From positions 2,544,054-2,608,053 of the forward strand of contig CAJINV010000005.1 of the NCBI GenBank assembly GCA_905178155.1: 64,000 nt of DNA. Direction: 5' to 3'. Positions 15,201 to 44,006 of this stretch are shown piece by piece. Source of the stretch: Amoebophrya sp. A120. Taxonomy: Eukaryota > Protista > Dinoflagellata. Below the pieces are notes generated by a model, which worked only from the letters and a program-made list of their open reading frames with translations, had not been told where the DNA came from and ran no database searches. The position numbers and the translations under genes were made by a program. Numbering within the stretch: position 1 is the first letter of the stretch; each line of letters opens with the position of its first letter.

Positions 15201-18200
15201 CAAGCCAACCAGTGAGACGAATGGCCTCGGGGTATGCATTGTAAGCATGTCCGAGTCTGGAAGAAGGCTTGTCATGGATGTCGTGCATGATTCGAGACTG
15301 TCTGATGCTTGTGGACGAAGAGATCCCCTTGCCTGTCATGCAAAATTGCAACCTGCCATACGGAATAAGTACGTGCCACATCATAGCCGACCAACGCCAA
15401 AGAAACGTTTGCCATCATTGGCATTCACTTTTGGCATAGCTACACCTCCTTAGACCCAAACATGTTTGCAGTTGAGACGGGGGGCCGCCGAACTACGGGG
15501 AGTACTGCGCAGCATGGGAGGACGAGTGCATGAACATTACCGGGCAGACCACGACGGGCAAGACGGGCAAGGCCGGGTCTTCGTACGGATGCCTCCCGGG
15601 CGAGCCACCTGCAGGGGGCGCATCCAAAGGAAAAGTTCCCTCTTCCCGTATCAAAGGGAAGCTTCTACTGCTGGATTTTCATACACAGGCCAGATTTGTC
15701 TTGCTGGAGATGACTCACTGGAGGCCCGTAGCGAGCCTGAGTACTAGAGAGGCTTTGGCATAGGCACTTAGCATGAAAAACGTTCCCGCTGTAGGGCCAG
15801 CAGCATCGGAAACCACGTGCATAATCCGGCGAAGCCCGTGGAGTTTCCTTCAAGAAGACGCAAATGCGCGGAGATGTACCTCACCAATATGGGGAGAGGG
15901 AATTTTTCCTCGCGATAGAGCGTGAAGGATGTGGACTACGCAGCGTCAGGGAACGTGAGTCGTACCATGTGCCCCGCTGCTCCACCGTCTCTCACGGGTG
16001 GTCTACCCGCGAGAAAAAAACTAGCACTATAGTGCCACATTTGTTGCACATGGTAGATAAAATTCAAATTATACATACTGGGTGGTCGTTCTGCTTCTGC
16101 CTTGCATAGCCTAATTATCAGCTCCACGCACACGAGGCATTTTTTGCACGCCCCCCCAGTCTCGTTTGATGATGATCACCAAGACCATGGTGCCGTGCTG
16201 GATTTTTTCTTTGTGACATGACACGAACGCTGTTGACCCCGCCAAACGGACTCCCAGCTGGTGCTACGCGCGGTGGTGCTACATCAAGTACTAAGCGGAT
16301 TTCCACATAAATGGATTGTGTGCGCCAGTTTAGTAAACTTCTTGCTCACCACGATCCTTTCTGTTTCCGGCACCTCCCAAAAAAACGCACCTATAAGCAG
16401 GATTGATGAGGTTCTTGCATCATTGGAAAAAAACTCAATCACAGTTCTTCTACTTCTACTTTCCCAACAAAATATTTCGCAGGGAAGTTGGAGCGAATGA
16501 CGGCGACATCGCGAAGCCCATCCCCACGGATGGCTCAGTATGCCGTGCAACAGTATCTTCGCGCTCTTTCTACTTGTTTTGTTGTATCTTCGAAAGACAC
16601 TATCTGTATCCAGGACAGCACAGCACGAGTAGAAAAGAAACGGATATCAATGCAATCGGACGAGAGCGACGAGTAGAAGTACTGTTGCGAGGCATAACCG
16701 CCCGTGACCCCGCCGAGCTGCACCAACTTGGACATAAACACGGACGTATCGACTGCAACGATGTCTGGATCTGGATGATTTAGCGGGAAGTTTGTCACGC
16801 CAGTCTGGCATCATGCCTCTGAGCGAAGCTTCTCGTGCGGAATAAGCAATACAATCACAGAGCCACGAGAAAAGCTGTCATGCTTGGGGTTGTAATAAAA
16901 CACTGCGCTTTATTGTTGTTCACTGATGGGGAAGGGGACGTGCACCACAACTTTCCAAACCCAGACATATTTGCAATGCATAGGACGACGGCTGGGGCAA
17001 CAAGCAGATGATCGAGTCCGGTTACGGCAACTTGAAAATGTGGTATAGACTTTGGTTTCCTGTTGTGTATAAAAGATTCCGAAGCAAAGACGTACACGTA
17101 CATCTACATGCACAACCCGCAATGCCCATGTTCAAGTTGAACGTGCTGAAAATCGTTCAATAGTTCGGGGCAGTTTTTGATTGTGGGGTTACCCCGGGCG
17201 TGTTGCGGTTGTTTCTTTGCTCCGAAAATGAGATCGCATATGGCCGGGTGTTTTTTCGCTGCATGATAGGCATGGGTGTGTCCTACCCCCGTGGTGTTAT
17301 GGATGTCTGTGTCTTTCGCGAGGATATGTTCCTCGTGTTTTTCGGATATTTGTATACGCTTTCGGTCCGAAGAGCATGATGGTTGAAAAATGTCAGCCAT
17401 CACGTTGTTCGGGATCGATGAGGAGCGTGTGAGGGTGACGTGGTTTCGGAACTCGGAAGAAGACCATCAAGATGTCGTCTAAGCCGGCACTTTGATGGTC
17501 CTGTCCGGACTTCTAATCACCTTCTAATTCTGCCGTCGAAATCCAATAGGAGCAAAATCCAAATGGATTTTGCACTACAAGGAAACTGGAAGCTCCCCAG
17601 ACATGTTCCGGGGAGCCGAATTGCCTCCGGATCTCGAAGAGAATGCGGGGAAAATTAAAAAGAAAAGATAGAAGTCAAATTCGACGGGATTTCAGAAGAC
17701 ATATTACGTACTACAAGCAACTTTAGGAGGAAAATTAAAAGGAAAATTAGAAGACATTCTAGAAGGCTAAATTATAAACATTTTGAAAAGGGGAAACTAG
17801 AAGGGGGTTTGAGAAGAAGAAACTAGAAGGGATTTTCAGACGGGCAAAATAGGAGTGGTGGTCCGGGGCACTATGGGAGGCCTTCGCCGTGTTTCCGCAT
17901 GTCTTGGTAGCGGCGGTGGCGAGGACAAATTTCGCTGATAGGGTGTTGTTTATTTTTGGGTCTTTGGGCAACTAGGGGTAGGGTGGGGAAGATTCGATTC
18001 CAAACATTGGAAGGTTTTTAGTTCGGCTTTGCCCGTCACTCGGGTGCTTTCTTTTCTGTTTGGGCGGGGCCTATCTTGTGTTCACCTTTGGGTAACCTAC
18101 TTTGCTGGGTCACTTTCTCCGGAATCGGGACCAGGGAAACACAAAAAACGAAACACCGGGAAAATTGACGAGCTTTTAGAAGTCAAGGCGGGGCGGGTGT

Positions 18201-18639: not shown

Positions 18640-18705
18640 GAGACCACAACGACGACGACGGTGGCCGCGGAGACCACGACTTCTACGTAAGCAGGCACAA
18701 TGATG

Positions 18706-18980
18706 TATTCTAAGTAAAAACGCCACCGCGATCCCTTGTGATGATGCAATTTTGTGTGATCAACAGGAATAGTAGCACTCCGTTTTCCTCTGCAAAGCTT
18801 TCCTTTTCCTCAGAATGGTAACCACACGGCTCCGTGAACGTGAGGCGGGTGCCCTGCTTGCCAACCTGCGCTGCGCTACAGCCAGAAGCTTGTCATGTGC
18901 GATTCCCAAAAATTCTGTGCTTGTTTTGCAAAATCGTTTCACACTTGACTCGGGAGACGGGGACGTTTTTACAGAGGACA
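18706..18980. mobile_element. Family A element just downstream of paralogue 4 (putative 3' UTR)
   Basis: TATTCTAAGTAAAAACG ... GGGGACGTTTTTACAGAGGACA; no clear DR. Confidence 0.55.
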
Positions 18981-20695
18981 GTGCCGGACACTTGCGATGT
19001 TTGAAAGAATCAATTGCCAAATTGAAAAATGGCAAATTTCTGCTTTTCTGGGGAAATAAAAGAAATTGGTCTTTGCCAAGCAAAAGTTCCATCCTTCTTT
19101 GATTGTACATGAATTGTGATGATGTCATAGTGAGCGCAAAGGCGTATGCAAGATGCGCTGGTTTGATGAGTTTCACTACTTCAGATGAATATCAGATGAA
19201 TCTTAATAACACGATAAGAAATAATATTATATAGTATCAAAGTCGTATCCTAATCCTTCCGTTACATGACAAAAGATAGATTACTATTGATAGAGAAATT
19301 ATGAGTATCGAAAGCAGGTTGTTGTACACGAAACAAATTGAATTTGAAACCGGAATTCCCGAGGAATTCATATTATCTTCATGGTTGTGGCCGAATTGGT
19401 CAGCGCAGATAGAAATCGGCAGTCAGAGAAAGGACAAACCCGCAGGAATCTTGTTCTGTTGTAGTTGCGATTGGAAGGGCAAACCAAAAGGAAACTTGTT
19501 CCGTTGCAGTTTCGGTTGGAAAAGGGCGGTCGTCTCTGTTGTAGTTCGGTCTTGTCGTATCGGTCCTTCCATGTGATTGATTTGAAATCGAAATTGAAGT
19601 TTCCTGTGTAAAAATCTGAAATGTAAGTGTCCCTACTTCCTTGATTGCGAATTCTGTCTTGTAAGTGTCTCGCCACAAAGACAAAACGGTTCGGCACAAA
19701 AGAAGCGTGTCGTGTCACGTCATGACACGGATCATTATACACAGCGAAACTTTTGTGCAAAAAAACCGTCATCAAACAGGAAGAGTTCGGTCTGTCGTGT
19801 TGTCGTCGTGATGGGTTTGCCATCACGAAGCCCCGCTCTGCTTTCATTGAGCAGTTGAGATTGAAGCCCATGAGCTGGCAGCCATATTACTGCGCTGCTT
19901 CACAATATTCTAGCTCCGCGTCGGTCCGTAGTCCACATTCGTTTTATTTTATCCCCAGCACAACCTTCGGTTGAGATTTATATATGCGGATTTTAATTTT
20001 TGTGTTGTTCGTGTCCTCGTTCGTACTCGTAGAGGACCAAAGCCGTCGCGTGTCATGATAGAGCGATCTTAATCTGCACTGTAAGTAATTCGTACCAAAG
20101 ACCAGAGCATACTTATTGTCGTGCGATATCAAAGGTTAAGGTGTGCTTTGTTGAAAATGACCGAGATTACGAAGCCGCAATAAGGGATATGAATCTGAAG
20201 GCGGTAATGTCCCCTCACTTGCCTGCAATCGTGCACGCGCGGCGCCTAGAGAGCGGCACCGGACTTAATGACGCAGTATGTGGTGATAATGTTTGTTCGC
20301 CAAATCTGATTTCGGAAAACCGTGCAGCTACCAGAAGTCTAGTCCAGGCGACCAACAGATAGATTCACAAGACGAGTGTACTTAGTGGAACTGTCGTGAG
20401 ACTGCGATTCATGAGGGACACCTTTGACAAAGTGTACATGTGCGGGGGGCTGCAAAGAATATCACATGTAAATTACAATGCTACTTCCGGCTCCTGGCGT
20501 TGCATTTGAGATTGAAAAAAGCCAAGCTAATTACTGTCACGCCGTTGTGCGAGATGCAAGTAAGCGTAGAATCGGTGTTGAATCCGTCGCGACAACATGC
20601 GCCATAATCCTCTTCGAGCGGTGAGTGGCGAAAATCATCCTTAGTTGCAAATGAGAACTGCCGCACGAGGAACTCGTCGATGCGGTACAGTTTCA

Positions 20696-26095: not shown

Positions 26096-29000
26096 CCGGG
26101 TCTACCACCGCGCCAACGCTGGCCGATCAGGCTCTTCTGGCGGCTAATGCAATTATGGACCCTGCCAATGACGACGACGACAAGAAGAAGGGGGCTGTGC
26201 AAGGTGCACTGACAACAAACATCGTCATGGAACTCGCAGAGGGCACAGTTGACCAAGCCATGGCCGATGCTGTCCAGGCGGATGTCGAGGCTGCGGCGAT
26301 CGAGGCTAACGCGAATGCCGCTTCGGTCGCCGCGAAGATCGTGGACGTTGTGCAAGCCAAGTTGACAGCAGGTACTTTTGTTCTGGCTGCAGGTAGCACT
26401 TCAACTTCTAAAATTTGGTTTCGAATGTACTCACCAGAAGGGAATTATAGCAGATACTTCGCGAATTTAAGCAGATCCAAAAGTTGCCGCTTTTTATCAT
26501 TTTGGCAAGCATTGTGAGGACGAAGGTCAAGCCTTGATCGTCAAGGTAGCAGGTCCAGGTGGCACTCCCCATGACGTCCTGGCTGCATGCTGGAGAAGCT
26601 TACCGCTGAATCCGCTTGCGCGAGGGTTACGCACTCGCTTGGGCCGATAGGGATATTAGAGAGGGCGACTGAGAAGGGCGGTCGGCCCCTCCAGCCAACA
26701 AAATTCGGCATTGCTGCCCCAGTTGCCCTCTGACCTGCTTCTAGTATTTTTGTTGGAGCAGGCGCATTCTTTAGCCTCACCATGATGGTGCTCCATCTTG
26801 ATTTTTGCGCTATGCAGCCTCACCTCGTGTGCCTGCGTTGCCTTGCCCCTGTTTTACGATGTGGCGTCGCGTTTTCAGTCTTTACGGCACATTCGTAGAG
26901 GCACACGCGGCCGCTCGGAAGCAAAGCAGCCCGCCGCGACGTTTTTACTCGCGCGCGCCAAAGGTTTCGGCGCAGGGGTGTTGCGCGTTTCATAGGGCGG
27001 CCGGGAATAAAAAAAAACAGCTGGTGCTGGCGGCCGCGGCGCGGAGCCACTGCACGAGACGCGGCGCTACTTCGCGAAAGCATTAAAAGCGAACAAATGT
27101 TCCGCGCGCAGGTCGCCGAAACAATTCGCAAAGCCAATAAGTTAGGCCCTCCGTGTGGAGGGTTGAGTGAAGCTGTCGTGTTTCGTTCGGCAGGAAAGCT
27201 CGGCTTCTTCTTGCGTCGCTAGCGGCACACAAAGAAACCGGCCCCTCCGCCCGGAGGGGGCGGTTTCTTTAGGACCCGGAAGTTCCGAAAGTGCCAACTT
27301 TCGTTGTTTTCTGGGTAAAAGGTAGCGGTCCGGCTATCAAACAAACCGCCCCCTCCGCGCGGAGGGGTCTGTTTCTTTCTGGGCCGCCAGCGGCGGACGA
27401 AGAAACCGAAAATAAGAAATCGACCCCTCCGCGCGGAGGGGTCGATTTCTTATTTTCGGAACGGCGCGCGCAGCGCGCCGAAGAATTTTTTTTTGTTGCG
27501 TCCAGCACTGGCCTCGGAAGCAAGTCGTGGGCCACGCCTCCGCGCGGAGGCGAGGATTTCTTGTTTTCCCAGTGTGGAGCAAGAGCAACGACAACGACGA
27601 GCCATTCCTGAGGAGGTGGGCGCCACGGTTGTCTGGTTCCTTCCTTATGCGGCATAGCGCGCGCGCACTGGCGCCGTGGGGCTGCGCTCCTTAAGGCGCA
27701 TGTAGCGTGGTGCGTGCGTTGTTACGGGCCTTTTGTCCGAGGGTAGCACCTGTCGCGCAGGCGCCGCTGCATGGGATTCCGCTCCGGAGCTCGGTGGCGA
27801 CTCGCGAGAGACGAAGGGCATGAGCATGCATGGGACACCGGCGCCACGACAAAGCCAACCAACGGGCTGTATCTTTGTTTGGGGCGCGCCACGTTTCGCC
27901 CAACCTTTTTTCGCTGTGTTGTTTCTGGAAAATCAAAACTCATGGTCATGCGGCAACTTTTTGCCTCTGGCGGTGTAGGGTTCGACCTTCGTTGGATGGA
28001 GTTAACTCTGCAGCAGTGGCGCCCGGTTTTCTTACAAGCTGCCGGCCGCCTTGTGCGATGGATCGGCGACGCATTCTCCCCTGCCCTCGCCAAGGCAGCC
28101 GCAGCTTCTCTGGCGCCGGGCAATCTGCTTAAATTATTGAAGTATCTGCTTCTACTACCTGATACACAGTAATCGTAAAAGTAAGTTGAGTCTGCCAACA
28201 TCGTGGTGAAATGTTTATTCATATTGATGATTGTTCTTGTGGTAAGTTGATGGCCCAAAATAAAATAAAGAAAGCTCAGCGACAAATCCGCAAGGATGAG
28301 CAAACAAAGGGCTTAAAGGGTTAAGGGAAGGGTTTAGGGACAAGGCAACTGGGCGATGCAACTGGCTGTAGCTTCGTGTTTTCCAGTGTTTCCCGGTGGC
28401 GTTTGCGTGCCATCGCTCAAGCCTCGGCTACGGCGGTGTTGACAGGAAGGGAGAGCAGAGGAGGCTCTCTTAGGACCTGCCAGCTTTGAGGAATCTGTTG
28501 CTTGGACACGAGGATGGGCAAGCAGAGGCGGCTTGTTTTGGACCTCGTGGCTGCGCGGAGGCTCTTGGTAGGACTAGCACGGAAGAGGAGGTAGTGCAAG
28601 TCCCGCCTCCTGAAGCCAAGGATTAAGGGCGCCGCAGTGCAATTTTTCCGAGGCAACTCCCCAGTCTTGGCTGTTCGACATCAAAGCGGGCGTTTTTTTA
28701 GTCAAGTTCTGGTGGCAAATTGTTGAAACACAGCTTGCCAGCCACTTACTCTCAGAAACTTCTCAACGAGCACGTACAACAGTCACTCGCTCGCCTAAAG
28801 AAGCGAGCATGAGCAACCAACTGATATTCAACACCCACGCCAGCATCCACACCGGCCACTGCAGAGCTGTGCATATCAACTGTAAAAATGTCTGGGTCTG
28901 GAAGAATGCAAGTTTGTCATGCTTGTCTGGCATGATTCGAGACTCTGTGTTGCATAGGCACGAAAAAGCACTCGCGCCTGTCATGCAAAAACGCAGTTTG

Positions 29001-31133
29001 CCATGCGGAATACGTTAGACATGGCAGCCAGAGAATTTGTCATGCATAGCTGCGTACTGCAGTGCGTCTATCATTCATTTTTAGCATTACAAGTTTCCAG
29101 ACCCAGACACTTTTGCATTTGATAGCGCACCTGCGTGAACGAAGGCGACGTGGACAAGTACACTGCGCCAGCGTCTTATGAAAGTGCACAAGTCCCCCTC
29201 CCGCTACCCCTCATAATTTGTGATGCAACATACCGAATCCACCACTTGTGCTGAAGCAGTGTTTGCATGACAAATTTCGGAACCTGAAACAGTACTAGAG
29301 TCCGTGAGTAGATTTGTCATGCAGAAGGCCGCCCATTGCTGCCGTTGCTTGTGTAGTTCCCGTTCATGCATTACAAATGGGGGGGAGGGGGAGTTGTGCA
29401 TTACCATACGCCTGACGCCGCAAACCAGGCCTGGCTGAATACCATATCAACTGCAAAGGTGTCTGGGTCTGGAAGAGTCCAAGGTTTGTCATGCACTGGT
29501 AGCATGACTCCAACTCCAAGTCCAAAGTCTGTCAACATGCACATTTAGTTAATACCCAAAAGCCCCATTTTTCTGTCATGCAGAAACGCGTTTTGTCATG
29601 CTGTGCTGCAAGATGAAATTGCAAATGAGGCGTCCTCATGCTCATGATTGTCCTACCCGCATGACAAGTTTCCAGACCTCCCAGGCATTTTTGCAATGGA
29701 TATACCACACTGCAGGACGATGGTTCCTACCAAGATACCACCTACGGGGAAAAGTACGTGGATCAGTACAGTGGGTACGCCGACTACTATCGTGAGAAAA
29801 AAGTGTTACAGTTACACACAACTCTGACGCAAGACAAGCAAGACGGACAACCTCTGTCATGCAGAAAATGCTTGCCAATGCCAGCGTCGTTTCATTCGTG
29901 TTTAGTTCATCCCTTATGGTCTACTGCGCATTATATATTAGAGCGACTTTGTGATGCTGAAACGCCAATAAATGTGTAACTGTATATAACACTTTTTTCC
30001 TGTGATAAGTACGGCGAATACTGCCTCGGGTGGGAAGACGAGTGCGATTCCGGCGTGGCGGGTGATAACACCCAGTGCACCATCACGGACAAATCGACCC
30101 AGTGCAATGTCGCGGAGGCGTCCTTAACGACAAACACCGCCACGGTCACGGTGCCCGCTATACATTGCAAATGTGTCTGCGTCCGGGTCTGGAACAAGAT
30201 TCTTAGACCTGTCATGTACGTGTTGTATGAGCAATGATGTCTGGTGGTGTGATGCATGCCGTAGTAGCGACGGCACAGATTTATTCCTGAGGGCTTCTCG
30301 ATGCCTATCTTTCCGCGTGACAAATCTTCTCGTCGCTCCACGTAGCAAAAACTACATTTATTCCCTTTGTTGCTCATGCGACACAGATCGTTTATTTGGA
30401 ATCCAAATGCAGCATCACACGTTGCAATTGCATTCTTCCAGACCACCCAGAAATATTTGCATTTGATACCTGCGTGGTGCGCGCAGAAGTGGTGCTACGT
30501 GCGAACGGCCAGCGCACCGAATGGCGCCATCGCCAAAAAAGACGCCATATGCATAATGCAAAAGTGATCGTACTTACTCGTAAAGAGCATTGCAAATACA
30601 AATTTCGTTTCCAGAAGTAGGAACAAAAACGCGAATTTGTATGCAATGCTGATTGAATAAACCAAATAAGCGTCCAGATAAGTAATTTGATGTCATGCAT
30701 AGCGGCAATTACGTTTACGACAACGATGAGTGCGATACTTTTGCAACCCATATGCGAGTGCGCCGCCGGCCTGTTCCAACATCGCAGACATGACCATCTC
30801 GCGGTACGGAAACTTTAACATTTGGTACTCCTTATCCCAGCGAGAAATGCAGACAGGCCATGTTTGTAATGCGAAACTGAATATGCTTAATAACGAACAA
30901 CGAAGCACCAGTCTGCGTTCTTGCGTATGTATCCCAAGCACCACGACGCTTTGGGCTCGCACGTGACAGATTTTTCTCTTACATTATTTTTGCGACGTGT
31001 TGACAAATAATTACGTGGCACTTGCCTGTCTTTATTTTCTGTCGGATACTCCTATGCTTACTGCGCTGCGCCAGTCACTACTACTACTTCTACTACTACG
31101 GCCACGGACGCGGCCACGGAGGCGCCGAAGTAG
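26096..31133 (+). CDS. Cys/Trp-rich secreted protein, paralogue 6 (5' part unresolved, possibly disrupted)
   Basis: Acidic exon 26096-~26391 is homologous to 14053-14374. A large intron with insertions follows, then ~28826-31133 with 7 introners: ELCTCVNEG, NQAWLN, DYGEYCLGWEDEC, PAWCAQKWCYV, CSNI, IWYSYAYC-T-rich; TAG 31131-31133. Confidence 0.7.
26430..28169. mobile_element. 1.74-kb non-autonomous TIR element inserted at TA, with internal palindromes
   Basis: Subterminal inverted repeats 26449-26476 and 28123-28150 (AGCAGATACTTC-nnn-AATTTAAGCAGAT); TA on both sides; empty site in the paralogous intron at 14405-14406. Confidence 0.75.
27406..27459. repeat. Perfect 54-bp palindrome
   Basis: CCGAAAATAAGAAATCGACCCCTCCGC|GCGGAGGGGTCGATTTCTTATTTTCGG. 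Confidence 0.95.
28874..29124. mobile_element. Introner family B
   Basis: DR GTGCA/GCGCA. Confidence 0.88.
29177..29408. mobile_element. Introner family E
   Basis: DR CGTCT/CGCCT. Confidence 0.85.
29445..29702. mobile_element. Introner family B
   Basis: DR TACCA/TACCA. Confidence 0.9.
29788..30007. mobile_element. Introner family I
   Basis: DR ACTAC/AGTAC; restores ADYGEYC. Confidence 0.85.
30159..30468. mobile_element. Introner family B
   Basis: DR CCCGC/CCTGC. Confidence 0.85.
30548..30752. mobile_element. Introner family D
   Basis: DR CGCCA/TGCGA. Confidence 0.8.
30833..31048. mobile_element. Introner
   Basis: DR CTCCT/CTCCT; restores WYSYAYC. Confidence 0.85.
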
Positions 31134-31447
31134 CTGGCAGTGATGACAGATGAAGGTTGTGATGGTGTTATTTGAAAGAATAGCAACCTGAACCAGAAGT
31201 GGAGCCAGTACAAGACTGACCACGACGAAGTATGTACAAAAATGTTTTAGTATGAGAAGTATATCAAGTAGTTGCAACAAGTAAGTCGATTCTTGGGGCT
31301 GTTCGGGGACCACGGGGCAACAAATAGATACAATACATAGTGACGAGAAGAAGTAGAAAAAGTAAAAGTCGAGTCGATTCTTCGAAGTTCCACCGTTCGA
31401 AGAGATGAAACATCAGCGGAAAAGAAGTATGAAGGTGAATTACAACT

Positions 31448-31768
31448 TATCAAAGTAAAAAAAGCCCCCACCCCATATCAAAACGAAACTTCTGATGCAG
31501 GATTTGCGTACAGAAATCAGATTTTTCTTGCAGTAGAGGACTCCAGGCCCATATCATGCCAATGCAGAGAGGTTTTGGCCTAGGCACTTAGCATGGGGAA
31601 CGCCTATGCTGTAGGACCAACGGCATTACAAAGCGGCTGCATAATGGGGCGGAGTCCATGCCGTTGCTTTCTTGCAAGACAGACGCGATTTGTGGTCACA
31701 AATCAGCATCGCAAATTGTCTGAGACGTTCCATTTCGATATGGGGAGGGGGTATTTTTCCTTACGACA
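31448..31768. mobile_element. Introner family F (host gene unresolved)
   Basis: DR CAACT/CAACT; body similar to 15621-15917. Confidence 0.8.
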
Positions 31769-33512
31769 CAACTCGTCGTCTCCGCCCTCTGCTCTTGCAA
31801 AGGAGCTGCACCCGGACCCAGGGGGGCACTCGACTTTGCATTTCTTTTTGGCGCCGCTTGCCTCACAAGTTACGGGGGCCAAACCGCACTACTGTCCGGC
31901 CGTGGTTCTGTCATGCGGATGCTGTCGTGCGCTCTGTCGAAGTACTATGTCATGCGGAACTGCAAGCCAGATAATTTCTGCCATCTCTTCTGTAGTTGCT
32001 GGGGCAGATGCAGATCATGGGGAGGGCGACGATACGTGCACGCCCATACGAGGAAACGCCCCCTATTTGAGATGGGAACAGCACGTGGTAGATGAAACGG
32101 TATCCGGAAGCAAACTAAAACACTTTTCAATCTTTACACACAGCCTTTTTACTCCTGTGAAATACAATGACAAGTAGACTGAAGATCAAGATTTCGATTT
32201 ATGCTTGCTTTTGTGGAGTTTTTTGAACAGCTGGATACAGTGGACGGAAGAGACGACCTGACCGATAATTTTTGAGATAAATAATGAAGTTACAACTGGT
32301 TGTAGAAATGAAAAAAAAATTGGGTGTGTAATATTACCAAGTTTCGAAAATAATTAATCACGATGGAAACAGATGAAAGAAATCGGCGCTGCCTTGCCAA
32401 GCAAGACGCATAGAGCAACACGTAATTTAGAAGGAGAAAGATCGTCCTCTTCAAGAAGGCGATTTCATTTGAAGACAGACGCGAAGATGTCGATCTGAAC
32501 TGCTCCTATGCGTTTTTTCATGAATGAATCCTGTACATATGACGTTTTCTACGAACGATGAATACTATCAAGTGGTGGAAGACGATCTACTCCTGCTCGG
32601 GCCACTTGTTCATTACGTCGGGAAGTGAGAACGGCTCATCCGAAGCCGGACGACTTGCGGGTGCGGCGGGAACAAATATAGTACAAAAGTCATCCTTTGG
32701 TGGTCCTCCTGAGGTACTTTGTTTGTGGCTTTAATAACACACGAACTCGTGCAGAAGGTAGAGGTACAGTCTCTGATTTCCTCACTGTCGTGTCTCGATC
32801 TTCATGTAGTCGTGCACGAATAGATTGACTACGAGAATGAAATATTACGCAAGTAAGTCATTAAAAAATGGATTTTCATCGGAGATTGAAATTATTGTGT
32901 GAGTTTGACACAGGAGTGCAAGTGGGAGAGATGCAGGCGACCTGCAGAGAAATTCATGTTCAACGCTGGGAGGAGTCGGAAAAGGAAAAAGATGATCATG
33001 GCTGGCGGTTGTAGATGTGATTCCATTTCGAAATCGAATTCCATTTCCAGCCGTGAAAAAGGAAAAGAACAAAATAAACATGGTGTGTCTGTCTCTCCTC
33101 GCGCCGATAATTACATGCAAGGGCAAAACCTAGAGGGACCCGGCAAGAATGCCCCGCCCCGCCTAGGCACCGGAAAGAACCAACGAAGACCTGGGCCGCG
33201 GCGTCCTACTCTAGCAAGCGGCTGACCGCCAGTGCCGCTTGCAAAATATTAAAGCGGCGGGTTCGCGCTCGCCCTTGCCGGATGGATGTAGAAGTGGAGA
33301 AGGCCGCCTGCGAACAAAAGCAGAAGAGCTAATGGCGCTTCATTGAAGACAGATCTTGTGGCGCCCTCTCAAGGACATCGTCAATCGACGAGGACGAGTT
33401 CTTGCGACGCCACTACTACTTGTGAGAACGAAGTGTAGTTGTTTTTAAAAACCATATCTACAATCTTCGACAGCGAAGAGCCTGTGCCTGGCGGATCCGG
33501 AACGAAACATCA

Positions 33513-35276
33513 ATGTTTTCGCGGCGGCCTCATGAAGAAGGACGTGCAACCTCTGCTTTTTTCCTGGCCGCTGTCATTGTTGTCACGGCTGCTGGGGCAT
33601 TGCCGGGCGCGGATGCGCTGAACATTCGGAAGACCAACATGAATTCTGCTGGTGTAGTCCCGGCCGAATATGCAAGTGGGAGTGCAAATCCAAATAGCAC
33701 TTTGGCGGGGAGTTGTACGTTAAGATTTTTGCAGGATTATTTGTCATGCTGGGCTCCTTAACGGAAGTAGAAAAATTTCGGTTCTTCATGATGCCCGTTG
33801 CTAGTAGTCCTCTCTGGGACTTCCATCTTCCATCTTTGGCTTCTATGTTCCGGGGCCACGGACTACAACTATGTATCCTTTACAATATCACATGAGCTGC
33901 AAAGAATTTTTACCACTTTCCTGACGCAGGCAGGTTTGGCTTTGCCAAGTTTGCATTTGATGACTTCGAACATGAAGTTGAGGACAAAGAGCCCAAGCTC
34001 CTTTCCCGGTCGAAAAAAGAGAAGAGCACGAAGGCAGGATCAACATCCAAGGCGAAGGACGAACCCCTAATAGTGAACGGAGAAATTTCAGAGCCGGTCG
34101 CGGAAGTCTGCGCGTGTGTGAACGAGGGCGTCGACAAGTTCAGTGCGCCGGGACACGTTATGAAAATGCAAGTATCGATGACAGGGGTCGGTGATGTGAT
34201 CATTTAACTTGCAAAAATTTATCCTCTATAGTTTTTTAGAGGCGTGTGCGTGTCGATGTCCATGTCGAATATGCACGGACACGCACGCGACCCTCGGTCG
34301 TCTAAAACAAGCACAACTTGCTACGCTAGATATGAAAATTTTTGTTTTTGTTCGAAAGGTGGTAGTCTTGCTTTTTCTTAGGAAAAAATACAACTAGTAC
34401 TTCTACATTTTTAATAGCATCATTTGTTAGCACATCCAAGCCAGCAGATCGAGTATCTGTCGCTCCTCGGGGGCTTCTTGCTTCATGTTTACAGAAGATT
34501 TTTGCAGCAGCTTCTTGCGAACCGCGTATCAACATCAATTACAGCATTGCACTCGTGAAGATGTTCGCGTTCCAGACCACCTGTGGCCATCATTATACTT
34601 GCAAAAATGCATACACAACGCGCTGAATCAAGCCTGGCTGAACGAGACCGCGGATGTAAACGGGACGTTCGATGACACCCAATACGGCAAGAAATACTTT
34701 GGTACGTACGGGGGTTTGCCCAACTACGGAGAATACTGCCTAGAATGGGACAGTGAATGTCCAGGAAAAGACGGCAGAACCGGGGACAAAACGGAGTGCG
34801 CGGTGACGGCTGCGACCGCCGCCACCGAGTGTGCGGCGGACACCTCCACCCTACCCGCCAATTGCCTCCGCATGTGGTGCTTCATCCGGACGCACACGGC
34901 CCTGAACGGATTCATCGCCCGCGATGCGGGTAGCGAAGCCCCACAGTGCACGAACGTGGACGACTATCGAAGGAATAAAAAATAACACCATCACAAAAAT
35001 CTTTACACTTTTGCACCAGAAGTTCGTTTCGCATGGCAATTTTTTCTTGTATTGCAATAACAAAGTGAATACTTGACAGAGATGCGCTGATATTTGCGCA
35101 TGACAAAACTTGCAAAAATGTGCAAACGTGATTCTGATTGCGATGGTGTTTTTTCCTTGAATAACGACGTCGCGAAGATCACCGAGAACGGTAAGGACCT
35201 GTACTACTCGTACAATCTTTGCTACGCAACCACCACAACCACCACCCCAGATCCCTTCGGGTTCTTCCTCCTCTAG
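33513..35276 (+). CDS. Cys/Trp-rich secreted protein, paralogue 7
   Basis: Hydrophobic N-terminus (AFFLAAVIVVTAAGAL); 3 introners. VCACVNEG, NQAWLN, NYGEYCLEWDSEC, PANCLRMWCFI, CTNV, LYYSYNLC-TTTTT. Confidence 0.85.
33669..33965. mobile_element. Old introner
   Basis: DR CCGAA/TCGAA; frame restored. Confidence 0.55.
34159..34613. mobile_element. Introner
   Basis: Short TIR TATG..TGCAAGTAT / ATACTTGCA..CATA; DR CACGT/CACAA. Confidence 0.75.
34965..35163. mobile_element. Introner
   Basis: DR ACGAC/ACGAC. Confidence 0.85.
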
Positions 35277-36140
35277 CCACTTCGGCTTCATCATCGGCAG
35301 TTGGCTGTCGTGACGCGGCTCCAACCTTTCATTCATGATGAAGTAAGAGCAGGACGTCGAGTGCTGAGATTGTAAATAAACAGTGCTGCAGGTCCAGCTT
35401 CTAAGTACCTGAATAATAGAAGTACCTTACCTCGTAAAATAAATTTTATTTGAGGACGATTTGCTAAGTGTTACGTATACGTTGGAAGAGTTTCATCTTT
35501 TTCAGATGAGAGAGAAGTAGAAGGAAACAGCACTTATTTCCTTGCCAAGCAAGTAGACCCCGACTAGGCTGTAATGCAGGAGTAGAAGCCGTTTCCGTTA
35601 CCGTTTTTCGTGCATCCTATCAAGCATCAAAATGTAGTTTCAACAAACTCTCAGTTGTTGTCACATGTGAAAAGATGAAATGAACAACAAGAGTCTTCGA
35701 CCAAACGTAATGCTAGCTCATGGTGTGGACGTGGACCACGTTTGTGTCTCTCTTCTAAGCAGCCGTTGGACAAGTGGAAGAGCGTGGGCGGCGGCCGTAG
35801 ACGACTGAAGAAGGTCCACCATGACTTTCGAGTATACAACAATACGCGGTCGTCGGCCCCGTGGGCCTGGTGCAGCGGCCGCGTCTACTTGAGTTCCTGC
35901 AGGTCATTCTTGCTAGTACCGAGTCTGGTGCTGGCGGAGCACCGGTCCGTCGTGTATGTAACCAAAAAGGTAGCGTCTTCGTCTTCGTCTTCGTCAATGT
36001 AGGACATCACCAGCAGTAGATCTACTAATTCACTCAGCGCCAGCAGGTGCAGGGGGTCGGTTCTGTTTCTGTCTTCGATTTCGTGAGGGACAATAAGACT
36101 GGGACTGTTCTTCGGTGAATTCTGAAATATCTTCTATATC

Positions 36141-37607
36141 ATGGACCTCTCCCGCATTCGTGTTATCAGCTTGGACGTGACAGGCACCCTGCTCCGTCAC
36201 CGCCACCCGATTTTCGAAACCTACGCGCGGGCCCTCGCCTGGGCGAAGTTTCCGAGGCTGGCAACCCCTGAGGAATTGCGACCGGCGTTCAAAAAGGCCT
36301 ACAAGAAGACCTGTCTGGACCTTCCGTGCTTCGGCCACGCTGCTGCCTTGAGTTCCCGCGAGTGGTGGCGGAGATGCGTGGAAACCTGCCTCGCAGAGGT
36401 GGGAATGCGAAAAAATATCGACTATACGGTATCCTGTTGAAAAACGTTACCGCCCCAGAGTTCTTGTCATGCAGATTTGCGATTACCCCAAAAATGCGTG
36501 CATTTGCATTCCCAGTCGTGTTTTGGCATTTGTGATGCTGCAAACACGATGGACAGATGGATTGTAATGCGGTTGCCCTTGCTAACATGCACTACTCTAC
36601 GGAGAAGTGCAACTTGTCATGTGTGCTGGCTCCCAAAGCCAAAACTTTTGGATTTGTGTTGCTAAGTTCTCAACTTGACCAGGGGCTGCTGGGGACGTTT
36701 TTGCACATGATACACGGACGCCGAGTTCAACCGTTTCTTCCGCCGCGTGTACCAGCACTACGGCTCTGCGGACGGGTACGCGCACATGTCTGACGCCGTG
36801 CCGTTTCTAAAATGGGCTGCTGGGTGTGCGAGGGCAACATCAAAATTATCAAAGCGGCAAGATGAGCATGAGCAAGGGCCTGTACTAAACAGAAGTACAA
36901 CCAGGTCCTCCTCGTCTCCGGCGACGCAACTGCCGCACCAAGAAAGAGCCTACTACAAAAACCCGGCGTTCCTTCTCGGTGTGACAACGAATACACCAAA
37001 ACGGACGATGGAGAGCGTGCTGCCCGTCATGGGGTTGCACGAGTTTTTCCACTTTTTCGTCTGCAGCCAGGACGTCGGCGCGGAAAAGCCGGACTGCGGG
37101 ATTTACGAGGAAGCCGAGAACCAGATGAAGTTCTGGCTGGGACGAACCGTGAAACCAGAGGAAATATTGCACATCGGGAACAACGTCATTCCGGATTTTC
37201 TCGCGCCGGCCTTGAACCATCAGTGGAAAGCGCTGTATTTAGATCGTAGCGGGGATGCAAATGTGACGGTGTGCCAGGATTGGCTGGAATTCGAGAAGAA
37301 AGAAAACAGAAGAAACAAAGACTCGACATCTTCGCTTGGTGGAGGTGGTGCCGGAGTGAGAAGCGATGCACGCAGTTGCAGTGTGGATCAGCATGAGATT
37401 GAAAAACTGCTACCAGCGTGCACGGTAAAAAGCTTTGAGGAGGTGAAAGACCGACTTCTGCTGGTGGCCCAGCCAGAACTACTAGAAGGGGAAGTAGGAA
37501 ACGAAAAGAGTGGTCGCGCATTTTTTACGTCTGGTTTCCAACGTGATTTCATCATGGTGCGTTTGCTGCGGAAAAAAAAAGTGATGTATGCTGTTCTTGC
37601 CTGTTAG
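36141..37607 (+). CDS. HAD-superfamily hydrolase (HDHD3/REG-2-like)
   Basis: Motif I ISLDVTGTL, GVTTN, GAEKPD, ILHIGN; one introner (36430-36712) whose removal joins DYT-DAEFNRFFRRVYQHYG. Start and end approximate. Confidence 0.8.
36430..36712. mobile_element. Introner family A
   Basis: DR TACGG/CACGG. Confidence 0.85.
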
Positions 37608-38760
37608 AAAGTCAAAAGTACGCATCATACAACCCGACACGATGACTCGAAATTCCAGAGGGGTTTATTGCGCTAAAAAGGTTGCTAGTGCTACCCCGTC
37701 GTCGTCGTCGTCCTTGAGAGCAGAAAAAGATCATGACTCGTTGTGTGGTAAGAAACGCAAACGCTCGAAAATCATCACTACTAGCTCGACGTTAATAGTT
37801 TTCCTCGGGTTCTTCAATCGCCTACCATCAAAGTGAGGATTTTTTCGCCTAAAATGGAAAAAACAAATTAACGCGCGAGAATGAGAAACGCAAGTACTTA
37901 CTAAAAAACTAGACAAAGGGAAAGGACCACGTTCTAGAAAAACACGGTTGTTTGCACAAACAATTACGAGCGAGTCACTTACACAGAAGAGGAGGAGCCA
38001 CGACGTTCACGTTAGCAATAGGAATAGCACGACATCAAACCACCTATGACGATCCTCCCCTCGCCGGCACAGCACACGACCCAGCAAACAAGCCCCGGGC
38101 TGCTCAACCACAGCGGCGCACATAATCCTGCCGCTTACACACAGTTCGATGTGAAGACGCAGAAGCTCACGCCGGGCGGGATGTATGTGCTGACCCCGTA
38201 CGGACAGGGGGTTTTGGAATCTTGGAGTGGTGTGATGGTCACCGTGCGGCTAGCTTGTGGAGCGAGAATGAGCATTCAACGTAAGTTATTTGTTCTGTAT
38301 ACTGACGACCTCTTGTGTTCATGCAAACGATGAACAGGCAGATGCAGAATGAAGGTTAGGATTTTCTTATGCTTGATAACAGAACACCCGGAGTACGACT
38401 AGTAGAGCTAGTGACTGCTGCTCTTCTTCTTTGAAAATGAATTTCCAAAACACAATGCTCTCAGGTTCAAAAGTGCAATTTCACACCCAGCACGACCTCA
38501 ACTCCGGTGCGAATCAGCAGCTTCTGTCAAGTGCGCGAGCAGATCAGCGTCGATCTGATATGGACGTCGATATGACAAGCGAGCCGCGGAACACGTGCAA
38601 GCGCAGCATCTACGAGTGCAGTGAAACGGACAATTTTTCGGACGATCTTCTGCTCCAACCGCGGGGAACGAAACGGAGAATGTGAAAGGTTTCATCACCT
38701 GTGCAGGTTTCATCACCGTGCAGATTTCATCACCTGTTGCTGTACTTGCTAGAACGCAAA

Positions 38761-39500
38761 ATGCAGGGGGGCGGTCCAGTCGTGCTCGACGTCCCGAACC
38801 AGATCTGCAAGGCAGATGTTGGAACTGCAGGCGAAAATACAATGAAAATATTAACATCACAAAGGGAGCTTGAGGTTGATGCTGCGGCAGTCCTCGTCAA
38901 CACAATCAGAGAGCAAATGAATATGAGCGGGCTTTTCAATATGACCAGTTTACGAGTTTTTTGCCACGACAGCGAGTGTCTCGCAGGAGTGGACCTTGGT
39001 GGAACGTTTTTGCTTATACTAGTAAGTAAGTTGTTGGGCCAATAAATAACTCACCGCTAGTACAACAACACCAAGGTAGACCGAGCAACCGACTACACCG
39101 AGATCGACCCGATGAAATAGAATCAAGAATAGAGCTACTGTCTGTGTACATTGAATTTGAAGTAGTTGCTTTTACCGAGCAGGTTGATGTCGTTGACAAG
39201 TAGTACTTGTTAAGGATAAGGAGGAGGCCCGGTAAAATTTATAGCTACGATTAATTATTTAAATCACTCGAACTCTGGGAACAACCTTTGATGAACTGTT
39301 TACCCTTTCGAAGAAGATTGGCGAGATAGTGGAAGCGCCCTTCGAAGAAACTTTTCATCTTCATACAAATTTTGCCGAAGCTATGCATTACGACGAGCCA
39401 GACGCACCATTTGTAATTGGTGCCGCTGCACCACGCGCGGTCGGGATTTGTGACCCCAGGCTTGATACAGTTGACGTCAACGCTCATTGTTACAGGACAG
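38761..39500 (+). CDS. Possible small hypothetical protein (2+ exons)
   Basis: Protein-like ORF segments 38761-~39021 (ending at GTAAGT) and 39329-~39500; family not recognised. Confidence 0.25.
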
Positions 39501-40159
39501 CATCGCTTCCGGCACAGAGCAGATCAATGTCAATACGTCGGGGAAATAGTACTCACTGCAGCAAGGCAAGCCAAAGATTGTGATCATCATCGAGCGGGTG
39601 CTGCTCTTCAACGCTCTGTTGCGCCGTTTATTGCGTTTCGGAAGTGGTGTACTAGCAGGGAGTTAGACGAGTCAGTTGCATATGCATCGATATTGAACCT
39701 GATCGAAGCATCATCTGGTGGTTGTCGTCTTTTTTCAGTGTGTCTTTTTTTCCGCAGGAGGGGCGGGCGAGTATTGCACAAAGTTGTCGTGAGCACAAGG
39801 TCATCAGGCTAAGTCTCTGCTATGATGTAGTTGAAGTTGTATTTTTCTCTTTTACGTAGGTAATCAAATCACTTCCGTTTTCACTTGTTTCTGTTTGCTC
39901 TTCCTGCATTGTGAAAACTTTCAACGATGGGTCGTCGATTTTCCTTGACGAGAATGTGAAACTGAAGAAGAAGAGGAGCTCCACAATCGACAGTCGAACG
40001 TGGAGCAGAGCTCTTTCTGACGTCAAACCGCCATTCTACTGCCAAAGACCAATAAAAAGCTCTACCTCCATGTCCATTCTACGTGCCAGTATCGTGTGGC
40101 ATCTTGTTTGCCGAATAAAACGGGGGCCGCGCTCTCGGTAAAATGGGATCGTTTCGCAG

Positions 40160-43100
40160 ATGGAACAACAACAGGGGATGGAGGACCCACCACGGAATTC
40201 GAATTCTGCAGGAGCTCCACCCACTTCGCAAATGAGTATGGTTTCTTCAATTTCGGCCGGAGTAGTGCACCCTGCAGATGCAGCTGTGCCCTGCCCGTCG
40301 TCTACGTCCGCTGGGCCGTCACAGCCAGTGCTAGTACCGCAGGCCAGATTGCCACTGTCCCAGCGCGAAGTACAAACTACAGTATGGAGTGGGAAATGCG
40401 ACAGCTACCCTAGTTGTACTTGTCACCCCGCAGAGTACAACGGCGCGTGCGCTGCGTGCGGTGTGCAGATTCAGCCTGGTCAGTGCATTTTCAAGACAAC
40501 CGGCTGGCGGCATCGGGTATGCCCCCACCAGCATGGCCAGGGGATGCCCGCAATCCGGCGGGACTTCATTCCTTTAGCTGTGGCGGCGAGCTGCGGGCCG
40601 CTTGCCATTGAGTTCGCGCAAGCAGTGGCAGAGGAAGGCGAAGCGCAGCAAGCAGGATCCGGGCGGACAGCTTTCCCCGTGGCGCAAGACGAGGAGGGAG
40701 GTGCTAACGCCCAGCGACGCCCCCAAACGATGCCGAGCCCGACGCCGAGCAGCTGGATAGGCGGACTGCACAGGAGTCCGCCGCCGGTGAAGAACCCTGC
40801 CCGCATGGCGTCAGACCCAGTCTCCACGGCGCACGTTTCGGCGCCCGTTGTGCCGCCAGATGCAAGTCTAGCACAAAGCCCTCCTCAGAAGCTGGCGTCG
40901 CAAATGAGCCACTTCTCCTCCGTCAGCGACAATCACAATTGCAGTCAGGCTCAACTACAAGGCAGCCAAAGCAGTTCCGCCTATCGACCGACACAAAAAG
41001 ACAAGCCTGAGAACGCACGACCGCGCAGTCGCAGTCCACGCCGGGAGCAGCAGGGTGGAAAGCAAAAGCAAAACAGGGGAGCTAAGCGGGGCCCAGACCC
41101 GACGCCTGAGCAGCGAGATTTTATGGATTTCGACGCAGGCGGACAATCGCTGATACTACGAGGAAACGCACGCGCGGGGGCGGGAAAAACGACGATGTGC
41201 GCGCTGATTTGCGATCGGCTAAAGGAGTTTTTCGAAGCGAGGGGACAGCCTCTAAAGATACTCTACCTTGTCTTCGGGAAAGCGAATTGCGAGGACGCAA
41301 AGCAGAGCCTGAAGTTCGACGCCGCGGTGGTCGATATCGCGACGACGCATGCTTTTGCGAAGGCCAGGGTGTTTCCGCAGGGAAAGCCGATCCAGTCCTG
41401 GGACGCAGCCGATGTGGCCCGGAAGCTAAATCTTGAGGCCAAACTCTACAGCGAGCTGAAAATGGTTCGCGACCGCCTGCTCGAGAAAATTAGAAGAAAC
41501 GCCATGTCCATGAGCGAGGACGGTGGCGGCGGTGGGGAAGATAAGATCACGGCGGAATCCATCGCGGGCGTGATGGAGCCCCGAAGGACTTTCCTGTTTG
41601 CAGTCAAGGCGGGCGCGCGAATGATCATACGCGCTGTCGAGAACTTCCAGTCCTCCAGAGACGCGGCCGTGCACGCTCGCCACGTCGCCTCCAAGGAATT
41701 TTTCAAGAAAAAGTGGGCAAAGGCGCTCGGTGAGCAATGGTGGGCGCAGTTCGCGAAGGAGTTGTGGGAGCGGGCATCCTCCTCAGTGGGCGACGTTGGT
41801 GTCACCCACGACTGCTACCTCAAGTGGTTCCAGATTTCGCAGACAAAAAGCCCGGCGCTAAGCAGGGCGGCCAACAGTCTTCAGCAGCAGGCGCAGCGTT
41901 GTCCGAGCCACCCAGAGCAGCGCCTGACGTTGCGCAGCGGACCAGGAGGGCACAGCTTCTATGGCTGCAGCAAGACGGACGACCGGGGGCATTTCGCCTG
42001 CAATTACAAAAAGCCAGCGGACGGGTACGACGTCATCATCATGGATGAGGGCCAGGATTGTATTCTGTGCAAAAACATCAAGTGAAGGCTTCACGCCACT
42101 CCAACTGCAATTGCGAGCGCTTGGCATGACACCTTTGTATACATTGACGTACCCAGCAAATGCAAATTGTAGAGCACGATCGACGCAAGAAGAGCATCAC
42201 CCTACGATCTGCTTGTGCAGCGACGCGAGCGGTGCTGCCGTGCCTTTCGCCGTTATGTACGCGTGAATGTTGTAGTCGGTGCTTCTAGTTCTACTGCACG
42301 ATGCCGATGTTTGCCTTGCATATGCTTGACGCCCTGTCAATTCGAGGCTTTCGTCCTGGCCGAGCCCCGCACCCTTCGGTATGTCGTCGGCGATGTGTAC
42401 CAACGAATTTTTGGATTCCGTGGCGCGAAAGATGACTTCGAGAAGTGCCCGAACGTTTTCCGCGATTTCGACCTGACTGCGTCATTTCGGTACGGGCGGA
42501 CCATTGCGGAGGCCGCGCAGCGCGTGCTCGGGACCTTGAGGAACTGTGGAACCGACGGGCAAACAAGAACCTTCCCGAGCTTAGTCGGCGCCGCGGCTGA
42601 AGACGGGTCGGAGCGGGTCGCCCCGGTGTCGGAGCTGGATTACCTGGAAACCAGGGAGCAGGTTGCGATACTCTGCAAGTCCAACAAGGGCATAGCGGAC
42701 GCGTTGCTGGCGGTGCTCAAAACTGCGAAGGCGCGCGGCCAGGAGATGCCCCGATGGAAGTATCTCGTCTCCGGGCCGAGCCTGAAGCCGGAGCGTTTTG
42801 CGAAATTGGTGGCGCTGTACAAGCAAGAACCCGGTGCGAAGGTCGAGTACGAGGGCGTGGTCTTCGAAGATTGGCAGGAGCTGTCTAGCGAGGTCGAGGA
42901 GAGCGGCAGTCCGGACTGGCTTACCCGCGTGGGGCTGGTTGAGGACAATGATGGCGATGTATTGGAGCTGTTCCAGGAGTTGGAAGCGGCGCATGTTGCT
43001 GCAAAAGATCAGACGGCAAATTGGAAAATTTGTCTTTCGACCGTGCACAAGGCCAAGGGCCTCGAATCTATGTTGGAACAAAAGTTTTGGGTCTTGCTTC

Positions 43101-44006
43101 AATGCCTGGTTGCGCTGTTTGAGATTGAGGCTATATACCAGTCTATAGAACAAAGAAGAAGAACAAGAAGCTCTGTGCATGGGCGTCGCCCGTTTCCAGT
43201 AATCGAGCCGTGTGTTGATCTCGTCCTGGAACACAACAAGATGACGCCGATATTAGTAGCCTGATAATTCATCACCATCGATTGATGCAAGTGCAATCCA
43301 AAACTTAGTGGCAATAACTGTTGAACATGCGGTAATCATAGGGAATGACTTCAAGACAATCAAGCTTCCGGAGTATGCGCGCTTGTTGTACATCGCGATT
43401 ACACGCGCGCGCCGGCGCTGCTACTTTTCGGAAAACCCGTGGAACCTGTTGGAAGGTCTGGGACAGAAGCCAGCATCTGGGACACCAGCCGCGGACGGCA
43501 CTTTTGACTCCACCCCTGCTGGAGATCATCGGGTCGAGCTGCCGCCGTCGCTCGAAATTTCGGAGCAGGAGTGGGCCGAGTACGAAAACACTTTCGACGC
43601 GTGGCAAAAGGAAACCGCGAGCAACGGGTATGTTTCTTCTCCCTGTCCCCTTCCACCGCAGCGGAAACACACGATAGAGAAGAGCGGGCAGGTGCGAAGC
43701 AATTATGAGTTCTTCTTTGTTTTCGACGAGAGGGAGATATCATGGGACGACCAGTTAGACCGTTTAGGGGAGCTGATCAAGCGGTATCACCCGGACAAGC
43801 TGTGCAGACTCATCGGAGTGACCTGCAGGAGCTTGCTCCTTACCAAGAACCAACCACCCGCCGGCAATAACCCCTTCGCGCAGCGAGTGACGCACGTGAT
43901 CACCGAAGAGACGATGAATAGGATAACCGAAGGCGCCGTGGCCAGTAGGAGGCAAATCAACGGGCTGCGGATGACCGATTCCAGAGGTGAGGAGGAGGAA
44001 GGCTGA
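40160..44006 (+). CDS. SF1A UvrD/FBH1-like DNA helicase with Zn-finger modules
   Basis: Q motif PTPEQ, Walker A ARAGAGKTT, YLVF, TTHAFA, motif II DEGQD, VGDVYQRIFGFRGA, LTASFRYG, STVHKAKGLE, LLYIAITRARR; two introners (42061-42322, 43069-43316). Confidence 0.88.
42061..42322. mobile_element. Old introner in helicase motif II
   Basis: TA ends; DR decayed; 4+1 join gives DEGQDLTPCQ. Confidence 0.7.
43069..43316. mobile_element. Old introner in helicase motif V
   Basis: Residual IR AAGTTTTGG/CCAAAACTT; 4+1 join gives KGLEFEH. Confidence 0.7.

Follow-up and report, generated by a model that had tools for sequence, protein, structure and literature searches.

A single 4+1 splice register for introner introns in a 64-kb window of Amoebophrya sp. 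A120

The introns formed by TIR elements in the window, the whole 64,000-nucleotide stretch of DNA analyzed from the parasitic marine dinoflagellate Amoebophrya sp. A120, are excised in one fixed register. The upstream cut falls one base before the left terminal triplet and the downstream cut four bases after the right one. All 19 simple TIR joints listed fit N/TAY…ANR-NNNN/ (slashes mark the cuts), in agreement with an original prediction of a 4+1 register made from the sequence alone. The register is regarded as real in this window with a probability of about 0.97. A120 contains about 29,850 introners, making up 17% of the assembly, and the published text describing them left their borders and splicing mechanism open (PMC7789003). 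The elements themselves are known, and the fixed 4+1 code answers the point left open there. A single register turns the question of A120 borders and splicing into a testable code and allows re-annotation.

Introner elements and the three predicted sites

The TIR inserts in the window were identified as A120 introner elements with 5-bp target duplications, on the basis of their TAT inverted repeats, a later A-run and short direct repeats. The TAT-initiated TIR followed by an A-run is present in the window elements and degenerate at sites 2 and 3 (see below). The elements are removed from RNA and present in DNA. Scanning with a single TIR motif yielded 146 loci, and the 80 loci listed were all in one assembly. 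Both arms were found in 111 loci, and 104 ended in ATA. The 5-nt flanking repeat was perfect in 90 of the 111 related copies, with a mean identity of 0.91 compared to 0.24-0.32 at other lengths. Many of the window elements align with one another; the three named elements at sites 1-3 gave no match of at least 100 nt elsewhere in the window. An Rfam search of the 64-kb window gave no match. Related elements were observed in opposite orientations within + strand genes (21196 versus 7399; 25448 versus 8030). Splicing in both orientations is supported but partly model-based, as only 21196 has a joint of its own, 7399 and 8030 being placed by model and summed intron sizes and 25448 by model.

The original prediction was derived from conserved residues at three sites in two genes:

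33513..35276, + strand: host gene 1, encoding a Cys-rich protein of 266 aa, one of a family of tandem paralogues; contains site 1
34158..34617, + strand: site 1 intron, T/TAT…ATA-CACA; TIR element 34159-34613, flanks 34154-34158 and 34614-34618 (3/5 match)
40160..44006, + strand: host gene 2, encoding a superfamily-1 helicase, FBH1/UvrD-like; contains sites 2 and 3
42060..42326, + strand: site 2 intron, G/TAT…ATA-TGCT, in the FBH1/UvrD-like helicase gene; contig piece end 42058; model DEGQDLTPCQ
43068..43320, + strand: site 3 intron, C/TAT…ATA-ACTG; contig piece start 43321; KGLEF; flanks share 0/5

The deposited A120 proteins P0001 and P0003 were 100% identical to the exons beside sites 1 and 2, respectively. 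A Pfam search of P0001, the product of host gene 1, gave no match. Errors are present in the deposited gene models of this window.

The coordinates, flanks and translations of the three sites were reproduced as originally given, with left and right flanks of CACGT/CACAA at 34154/34614, GATTG/TGCTT at 42056/42323 and GAATC/ACTGT at 43064/43317. The assertion that residues pin the register at all three sites was found to be true of site 1 only, where the solution is unique; at site 3 the register is favoured and at site 2 it is not unique. With k as the number of bases retained from the left repeat copy, the 4+1 register corresponds to k=4. At site 1, D is obtained only from k=4, while k<=3 gives N and k>=5 gives V. 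D occupies this column in 7 of the 10 paralogues aligned (out of 17 other matches), and V or N in none of the 10. The deposited model P0001 reads PGH-D-ALNQAW, and the 1197 nt of contig up to the third junction equal a three-intron join. The site 1 cut rests on the deposited model, the paralogues and this contig span, its own joint not being among the joints listed. At site 3, the conserved motif KGLE-F is obtained from k=4, and k=3 yields KGLE-V instead. At site 2, DEGQD-L is obtained from k=2, 3 and 4 alike, so the residues exclude only k=5 and k<=1, and the L column is not conserved among solved relatives, being C in FBH1 and T in UvrD. Provided that the skipped segment equals the element plus 5 nt, the contig piece starting at 43321 allows k=4 only at site 3, and the piece ending at 42058 allows k=3 or 4 at site 2, with identical product. 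The flanks of sites 2 and 3 had been described as repeat copies; this resemblance is gone, with 1/5 and 0/5 bases matching. Two further sites with GGAAG repeats, at 6687 and 22547, had been flagged as equally compatible with a 5+0 register. That compatibility holds, but the sites have no bearing on the register, because k=4 and k=5 give the same mRNA.

Contig joints and the register

Joints were drawn from RNA-like contigs aligned over two 20-kb stretches. The runs used, X1-X4, come from a single sample and are RNA by guess, none being on record as such; contigs lose rare variants. The 23 joints listed (8 + 15) comprise 3 plain GT-AG joints, 1 composite joint and 19 joints across a TIR element. 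The chance of all 19 fitting a pre-named k is P=9.4e-7, with k uniform on 0-5. Among these 19, k>=5 is excluded by five joints and k<=3 by seven, and three have zero slide, so that no other cut is possible (16003-16222, 16538-16700 and 18705-18984). The introns that bear most on the register are listed here:

16003..16222, + strand: non-slidable intron C/TAC…ACA-TGAC; joint 16002>16223, zero slide, 4/4 runs
16538..16700, + strand: non-slidable intron G/TAT…ATA-ACCG; joint 16537>16701, zero slide, 4/4 runs
18705..18984, + strand: non-slidable intron G/TAT…ACA-GTGC; joint 18704>18985, zero slide, 3/4 runs
28873..31052, + strand: seven consecutive TIR introns, each excised as element+5; joints in X1 and X2, none in the DNA-like X5
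31427..32052, + strand: TIR intron whose 4+1 cuts give GT-AG ends as well (G/TAT…ATA-CGAG); contig joint
33668..33966, + strand: intron of the site 1 gene, A/TAT…ATG-ACTT, with decayed 3′ triplet; pieces end at 33667 (X1, X2), k=4 only
34964..35167, + strand: slidable intron with a perfect ACGAC repeat; contigs and deposited model
36429..36716, + strand: intron G/TAT…ATA-CACG, k=1-5 equivalent; adjacent pieces of X2 record 12

In one gene, eleven introns total 2853 nt, matching what the contigs require. When five deposited paralogue models were aligned exactly, with splicing, every TIR intron proved 4+1-compatible at the protein level. These models carry errors and weigh less as evidence for the register than the joints.

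One joint, 14354>14870 (GT..AA), was considered as a counter-example and rejected. It is composite, with 42 bases of low-complexity exon lying between, as seen from the record sizes 72=42+30 (X2) and 183=42+79+62 (X3) and from loose ends in X1. Seven of the 15 joint rows of the first stretch were dropped as X5-only joins between repeat copies. The raw-read run X8 gave matches on repeat fragments only.

Joints of this kind could also arise if reverse transcriptase jumped from one direct repeat to the other across a hairpin, or if the elements were excised at the DNA level. Repeat-flanked hairpins are a known setting for such jumps (PMC2923612), and the RNA nature of X1-X4 is only a guess. However, exact joints were found where the flanks share just 0-2 of 5 bases, the same contigs also join GT-AG introns, and the elements at sites 1-3, if unspliced, bring stops in all frames. 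Also against this reading is the DNA-like run X5, which is unspliced over 31688-45475 with 0 differences; for the eight TIR joints of the first stretch, none was found in X5 among its joints counted. We find artefacts of this type scarcely credible as the source of the joints.

Intron termini, hairpins and recognition of the cut sites

The anatomy of the introns was compiled from 46 cases, 19 of them placed by joint, 7 by the end of a piece or contig and 20 by model; the slidable or model-only introns among the 46 were placed with the motif itself. Intron 2 of P0010 (about 972-1200), which slides over a 25-nt duplication, was excluded. The +1 base and the acceptor dinucleotide had been predicted to be free, with +2T and +3A supplied by the TIR, and this was borne out. 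The +1 base was G in 17, C in 14, A in 8 and T in 7 of the 46 introns, with no significant preference for G (17/46, p=0.43), and 15 of the 16 possible acceptor dinucleotides were seen. T was found at +2 in 45/46 introns, A at +3 in 46/46, T at +4 in 41/46 and G at +5 in 20/46. The single +2C donor carries +1G, like a GC donor. On the 3′ side the triplet is nearly constant (-7A 45/46, -6T 42/46, -5A 44/46), and the last four bases are free. U2-type introns have GT or GC donors and AG acceptors; 29 of the 46 donors begin with AT, CT or TT, and AG was found in 2 of the 46 acceptors. No drift toward GT or AG ends was found, no +1/-1 pairing was evident in the introns, and the exon base following the intron was A in 5, C in 7, G in 7 and T in 6 cases (n=25).

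Direct support for splicing that does not read GT/AG was obtained from one intron:

3769..4122, + strand: intron T/TAC…GTA-AAGA; contig ends 3739-4152 and 4123

An in-frame GT-AG alternative, 3768-4121, lies one base upstream and gives the same protein. A GT-AG cut predicts contig ends at 3738-4151 and 4122, and a 4+1 cut predicts 3739-4152 and 4123. Ends at 3739-4152 were observed in 3/4 runs and the end at 4123 in 4/4, corresponding to the 4+1 cut. As a control, the same contig-end logic reproduced 3/3 known joints. A GT-AG pair one base away was ignored, as expected from the original prediction that these dinucleotides are not read. An invariant branch point at -7A was considered and is weakened by the -7G of this intron; the candidate branch bases are not invariant, with G once at -7 and twice at -5.

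U12 introns tolerate varied termini and have a donor consensus resembling RTATCCTT. Several donors in the window read NTATCC, TATCC being found at +2..+6 in 7/46 introns, which could point to processing by a minor (U12-like) spliceosome. Expanded U12 introns with inverted repeats are described for Physarum (PMC11282704). Against this, 39/46 introns are without TATCC, the +5 base is G in 20, and U11, U12, U4atac and U6atac are reported as absent in the published survey of A120 (PMC7789003). Splicing by a U12-like machinery is regarded as very unlikely.

The arms of the introns pair better than shuffles in 25/25 cases (z -1.8 to -10.6); in 3 canonical introns the arms were not paired beyond shuffles. 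Pairing of the arms alone does not show a role in splicing, because any TIR transposon has such arms. The triplets at +2..+4 and -7..-5 are complementary at 23, 22 and 24 of 25. The original prediction had the cut sites measured from the TIR stem and not read as GT/AG; in the strict form of this idea, a ruler would set both cuts from the stem base whatever the sequence. The constant offsets fit a ruler, and at least 10 end-to-end pairs are expected in 36/45 folded introns. Pairing also fits the 3769 intron, where +4C pairs with -7G as one compensated pair, and two A-to-G changes at -5 that retain a wobble pair. However, fewer than 10 pairs are expected in 9/45, and the terminal pairs are predicted to be open (probability <=0.1) in 5/6 introns uniquely fixed by RNA. 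The cut position is constant, with the outermost duplex pair ranging between +1 and +6. At site 1 the terminal triplet and the inner stem are out of step by 2 nt, and the cut keeps to the triplet. +3A is invariant and its partner at -6 has changed 4 times. Uncompensated changes at +3:-6 and +4:-7 were on the T side in 8/8 cases, the A being spared (p=0.008), in a test of 8 events only that motif-guided placement may bias; decay in the inner A and T tracts is similar (138 and 144 of 184). A strict ruler is considered unlikely. The stem-ruler proposal was right in that GT/AG is unread, but it probably overstates the case. Only the 3′ cut requires a distance rule, for which candidate reference points are the stem end, the triplet or a branch nucleotide.

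The explanation we favour, at slightly better than even odds, is reading of TAY by a relaxed U2 spliceosome, with the hairpin joining the ends and the 3′ cut placed by distance. The donor looks to be read as sequence, because all six plain canonical donors examined begin GTAY and share +2T and +3A with the TIR introns. The process would start with insertion of a TA/TA-ended DNA transposon, making a 5-bp target duplication. The ordinary U2 spliceosome of the cell, in a form now blind to the first base and to the final AG, would then read the donor as N-T-A-Y, corresponding to the +2..+4 letters of the GTAY donors of the genome. The hairpin would carry the 3′ arm to the active site, and the 3′ cut would come a fixed 4 nt after the A-N-R triplet at the end, with a branch nucleotide in this triplet as a possible starting point of the count. 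The 1+4 bases removed cancel the duplication, and the mRNA is therefore restored at any insertion site. As a fixed register leaves the gene exactly as it was and demands no proto-splice site, it likely explains the invasion by thousands of elements.

Support for a spliceosomal reading is found in the element at 31427..32052, which is GT-AG in the 4+1 register. Nearly all spliceosome proteins and U2, U4, U5 and U6 are reported for A120, and no minor spliceosome, in the published account (PMC7789003). According to Table S4 of the same source, every top donor is NT in A120 and TT in A25, where the repeats start with TTA; A25 would likewise have T at +2 and A at +3. The lack of any residual +1G or AG preference and of an invariant candidate branch base argues against a relaxed U2 spliceosome. 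If the process is spliceosomal, recognition of the terminal G and of AG can both be lost. In its widest form, which we hold with even confidence, Amoebophrya would possess a second splice code, N/TAY…ANR-N4/, served by a spliceosome without +1G and AG recognition and with the 3′ cut set by distance from the hairpin end. Any TA/TA transposon duplicating 5 bp would then form a seamless intron wherever it inserts and in either orientation, and most of the "variable" introns would be one class.

Comparison with known introners and hairpin introns

The elements in the window share with the A120 introners described by Farhat et al. 2021 (PMC7789003) the TAT inverted repeats, the A-run, the non-GT-AG ends and a length of about 240 nt. 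The direct repeats are given there as 3-5 nt, and as 5 bp in the legend of Fig. S19; in the window they are 5 bp. Where that account describes splice sites as variable relative to the hairpin or unknown, the window junctions have one register. We read this as a correction of the published description and not as non-membership among the A120 introners. The apparent variability of the borders would be explained by sliding, as 39/46 introns are slidable and an AG end can be reached by sliding in 12/46 (26%). This fraction resembles the 1014 of 3852 AG ends in the fam3 annotation (PMC12130899), which suggests that the earlier variability was largely an alignment effect. Gozashti et al. 2025 (PMC12130899, sd07) list A120 families as TIR DNA elements, with a 5-bp TSD and TA/TA termini for fam38. 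Offsets of 1 and 4 nt with a 5-bp TSD can be read from the sd07 rows for fam160 (splice 23/365, element 24-361) and fam56 (splice 52/201, element 53-197). These are 2 of the 41 A120 rows compared (of 58); the others scatter and are assigned different mechanisms in that table. A literature search, mainly outside subscription journals and theses, revealed no publication that gives a fixed register for A120.

The same architecture is seen in the nonconventional introns of Euglena (PMC12501133, PMC4770533), which also combine paired triplets, set at a fixed distance from the free ends, with a hairpin, direct repeats, slidable borders and a proposed MITE origin. In the Euglena code, N3-CDG…CH′G-N5-6, the triplets are CDG and CH′G with spacers of 3 and 5-6 nt; in the window they are TAY and ANR with spacers of 1 and 4 nt. 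The next exon base is a purine in Euglena, whereas the window introns follow no purine rule. The window offers a second, independent case of free-ended hairpin introns with fixed spacers. Non-spliceosomal factors have been proposed for the Euglena introns (PMC12501133), which counts against a spliceosomal reading here. The main rival to the relaxed U2 spliceosome is a dedicated machine, as proposed for the hairpin introns of Euglena and of diplonemids, that would bind the paired terminal triplets, cut 1 and 4 nt outside them and ligate the exons. Such a machine would fit the fixed spacers and slidable repeats, the pairing of the arms, the indifference to G and AG including the GT-AG passed over at 3769, and the U1 snRNA, which is given as not found in A120 in the published survey (PMC7789003). 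On the other hand, the Euglena motif is unrelated to canonical donors, while the window triplet sits just where the canonical donors have TAY and, by extension, would do so in A25 with its different repeat. Direct and inverted repeats are reported together in 15% of canonical A120 introns (PMC7789003), whereas such hybrids are described as rare in Euglena (PMC12501133). A dedicated machine is regarded as a serious possibility, though a doubtful one.

A relaxed U2 spliceosome has a parallel in Fritillaria borealis (PMC13326754; PMC11282704), whose introns are described as MITE-derived, with TIR and TSD, and mostly non-GT-AG. According to these reports, the U2 spliceosome of Fritillaria handles the non-canonical introns without a minor spliceosome, and U2AF is duplicated and the m6A of the snRNA altered. 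The preferred ends in Fritillaria are AG-AC and AG-AT, whereas the terminal dinucleotides in the window vary freely apart from +2T.

Nested and atypical introners

Two features of the window concern TIR introns (transposon-derived introners with TAT…ATA hairpin ends) in close combination:

22082-22258, complete TAT…ATA element that has a 5-nt repeat of its own, within another TIR intron (22061-22550)
6420-6427, micro-exon of 8 nt between two TIR introns

The nested element and its host are possibly a twin intron. For the micro-exon, five of its eight letters were present between the two sides of the joint, the place where a contig skips an element plus 5 nt, in all four runs of RNA-like contigs. 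In intron 968-1221 the left TIR arm appears to have been swapped for a copy, about 25 nt long, of the downstream exon start, and because of this seeming replacement the right end is matched by TA only. The intron would offer a natural test of the stem. The TAT…ATA pairs at 31476-31740 and 46529-46793 are related to each other and are flanked by CCCCA/TGGGG, which match as inverted and not as direct repeats. These pairs are probably the inner parts of longer TIRs.

Deposited gene models

12200-19400, deposited protein model P0019, in disagreement with the RNA contigs on exon/intron content

A low-complexity exon of 45 nt (14483-14527) was left out of P0019, and intron 16538-16700 was kept in it but is removed in the RNA contigs. 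The start codon of a further deposited model, P0005, falls within element 25109-25413, which is 93% identical to the element at 7021 and lies in the opposite orientation. P0003, the deposited FBH1/UvrD-like helicase, looks truncated, as the helicase reading frame extends some 470 codons further 5′ than the start given in the model (40160-41572). This extension contains GAGKTT, a Walker A-like motif.

Host genes

36141-37495, gene split by intron 36429-36716
1-35300, seven or more paralogous genes for a Cys-rich protein, in a tandem array

Judged by eye, the former looks like a putative HAD-family hydrolase gene. A Pfam search with P0001, the deposited 266-aa member of the array, gave no match. 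The paralogues are characterized by a YGEYC motif and Thr-rich tails, and each carries a separate set of introner insertions.
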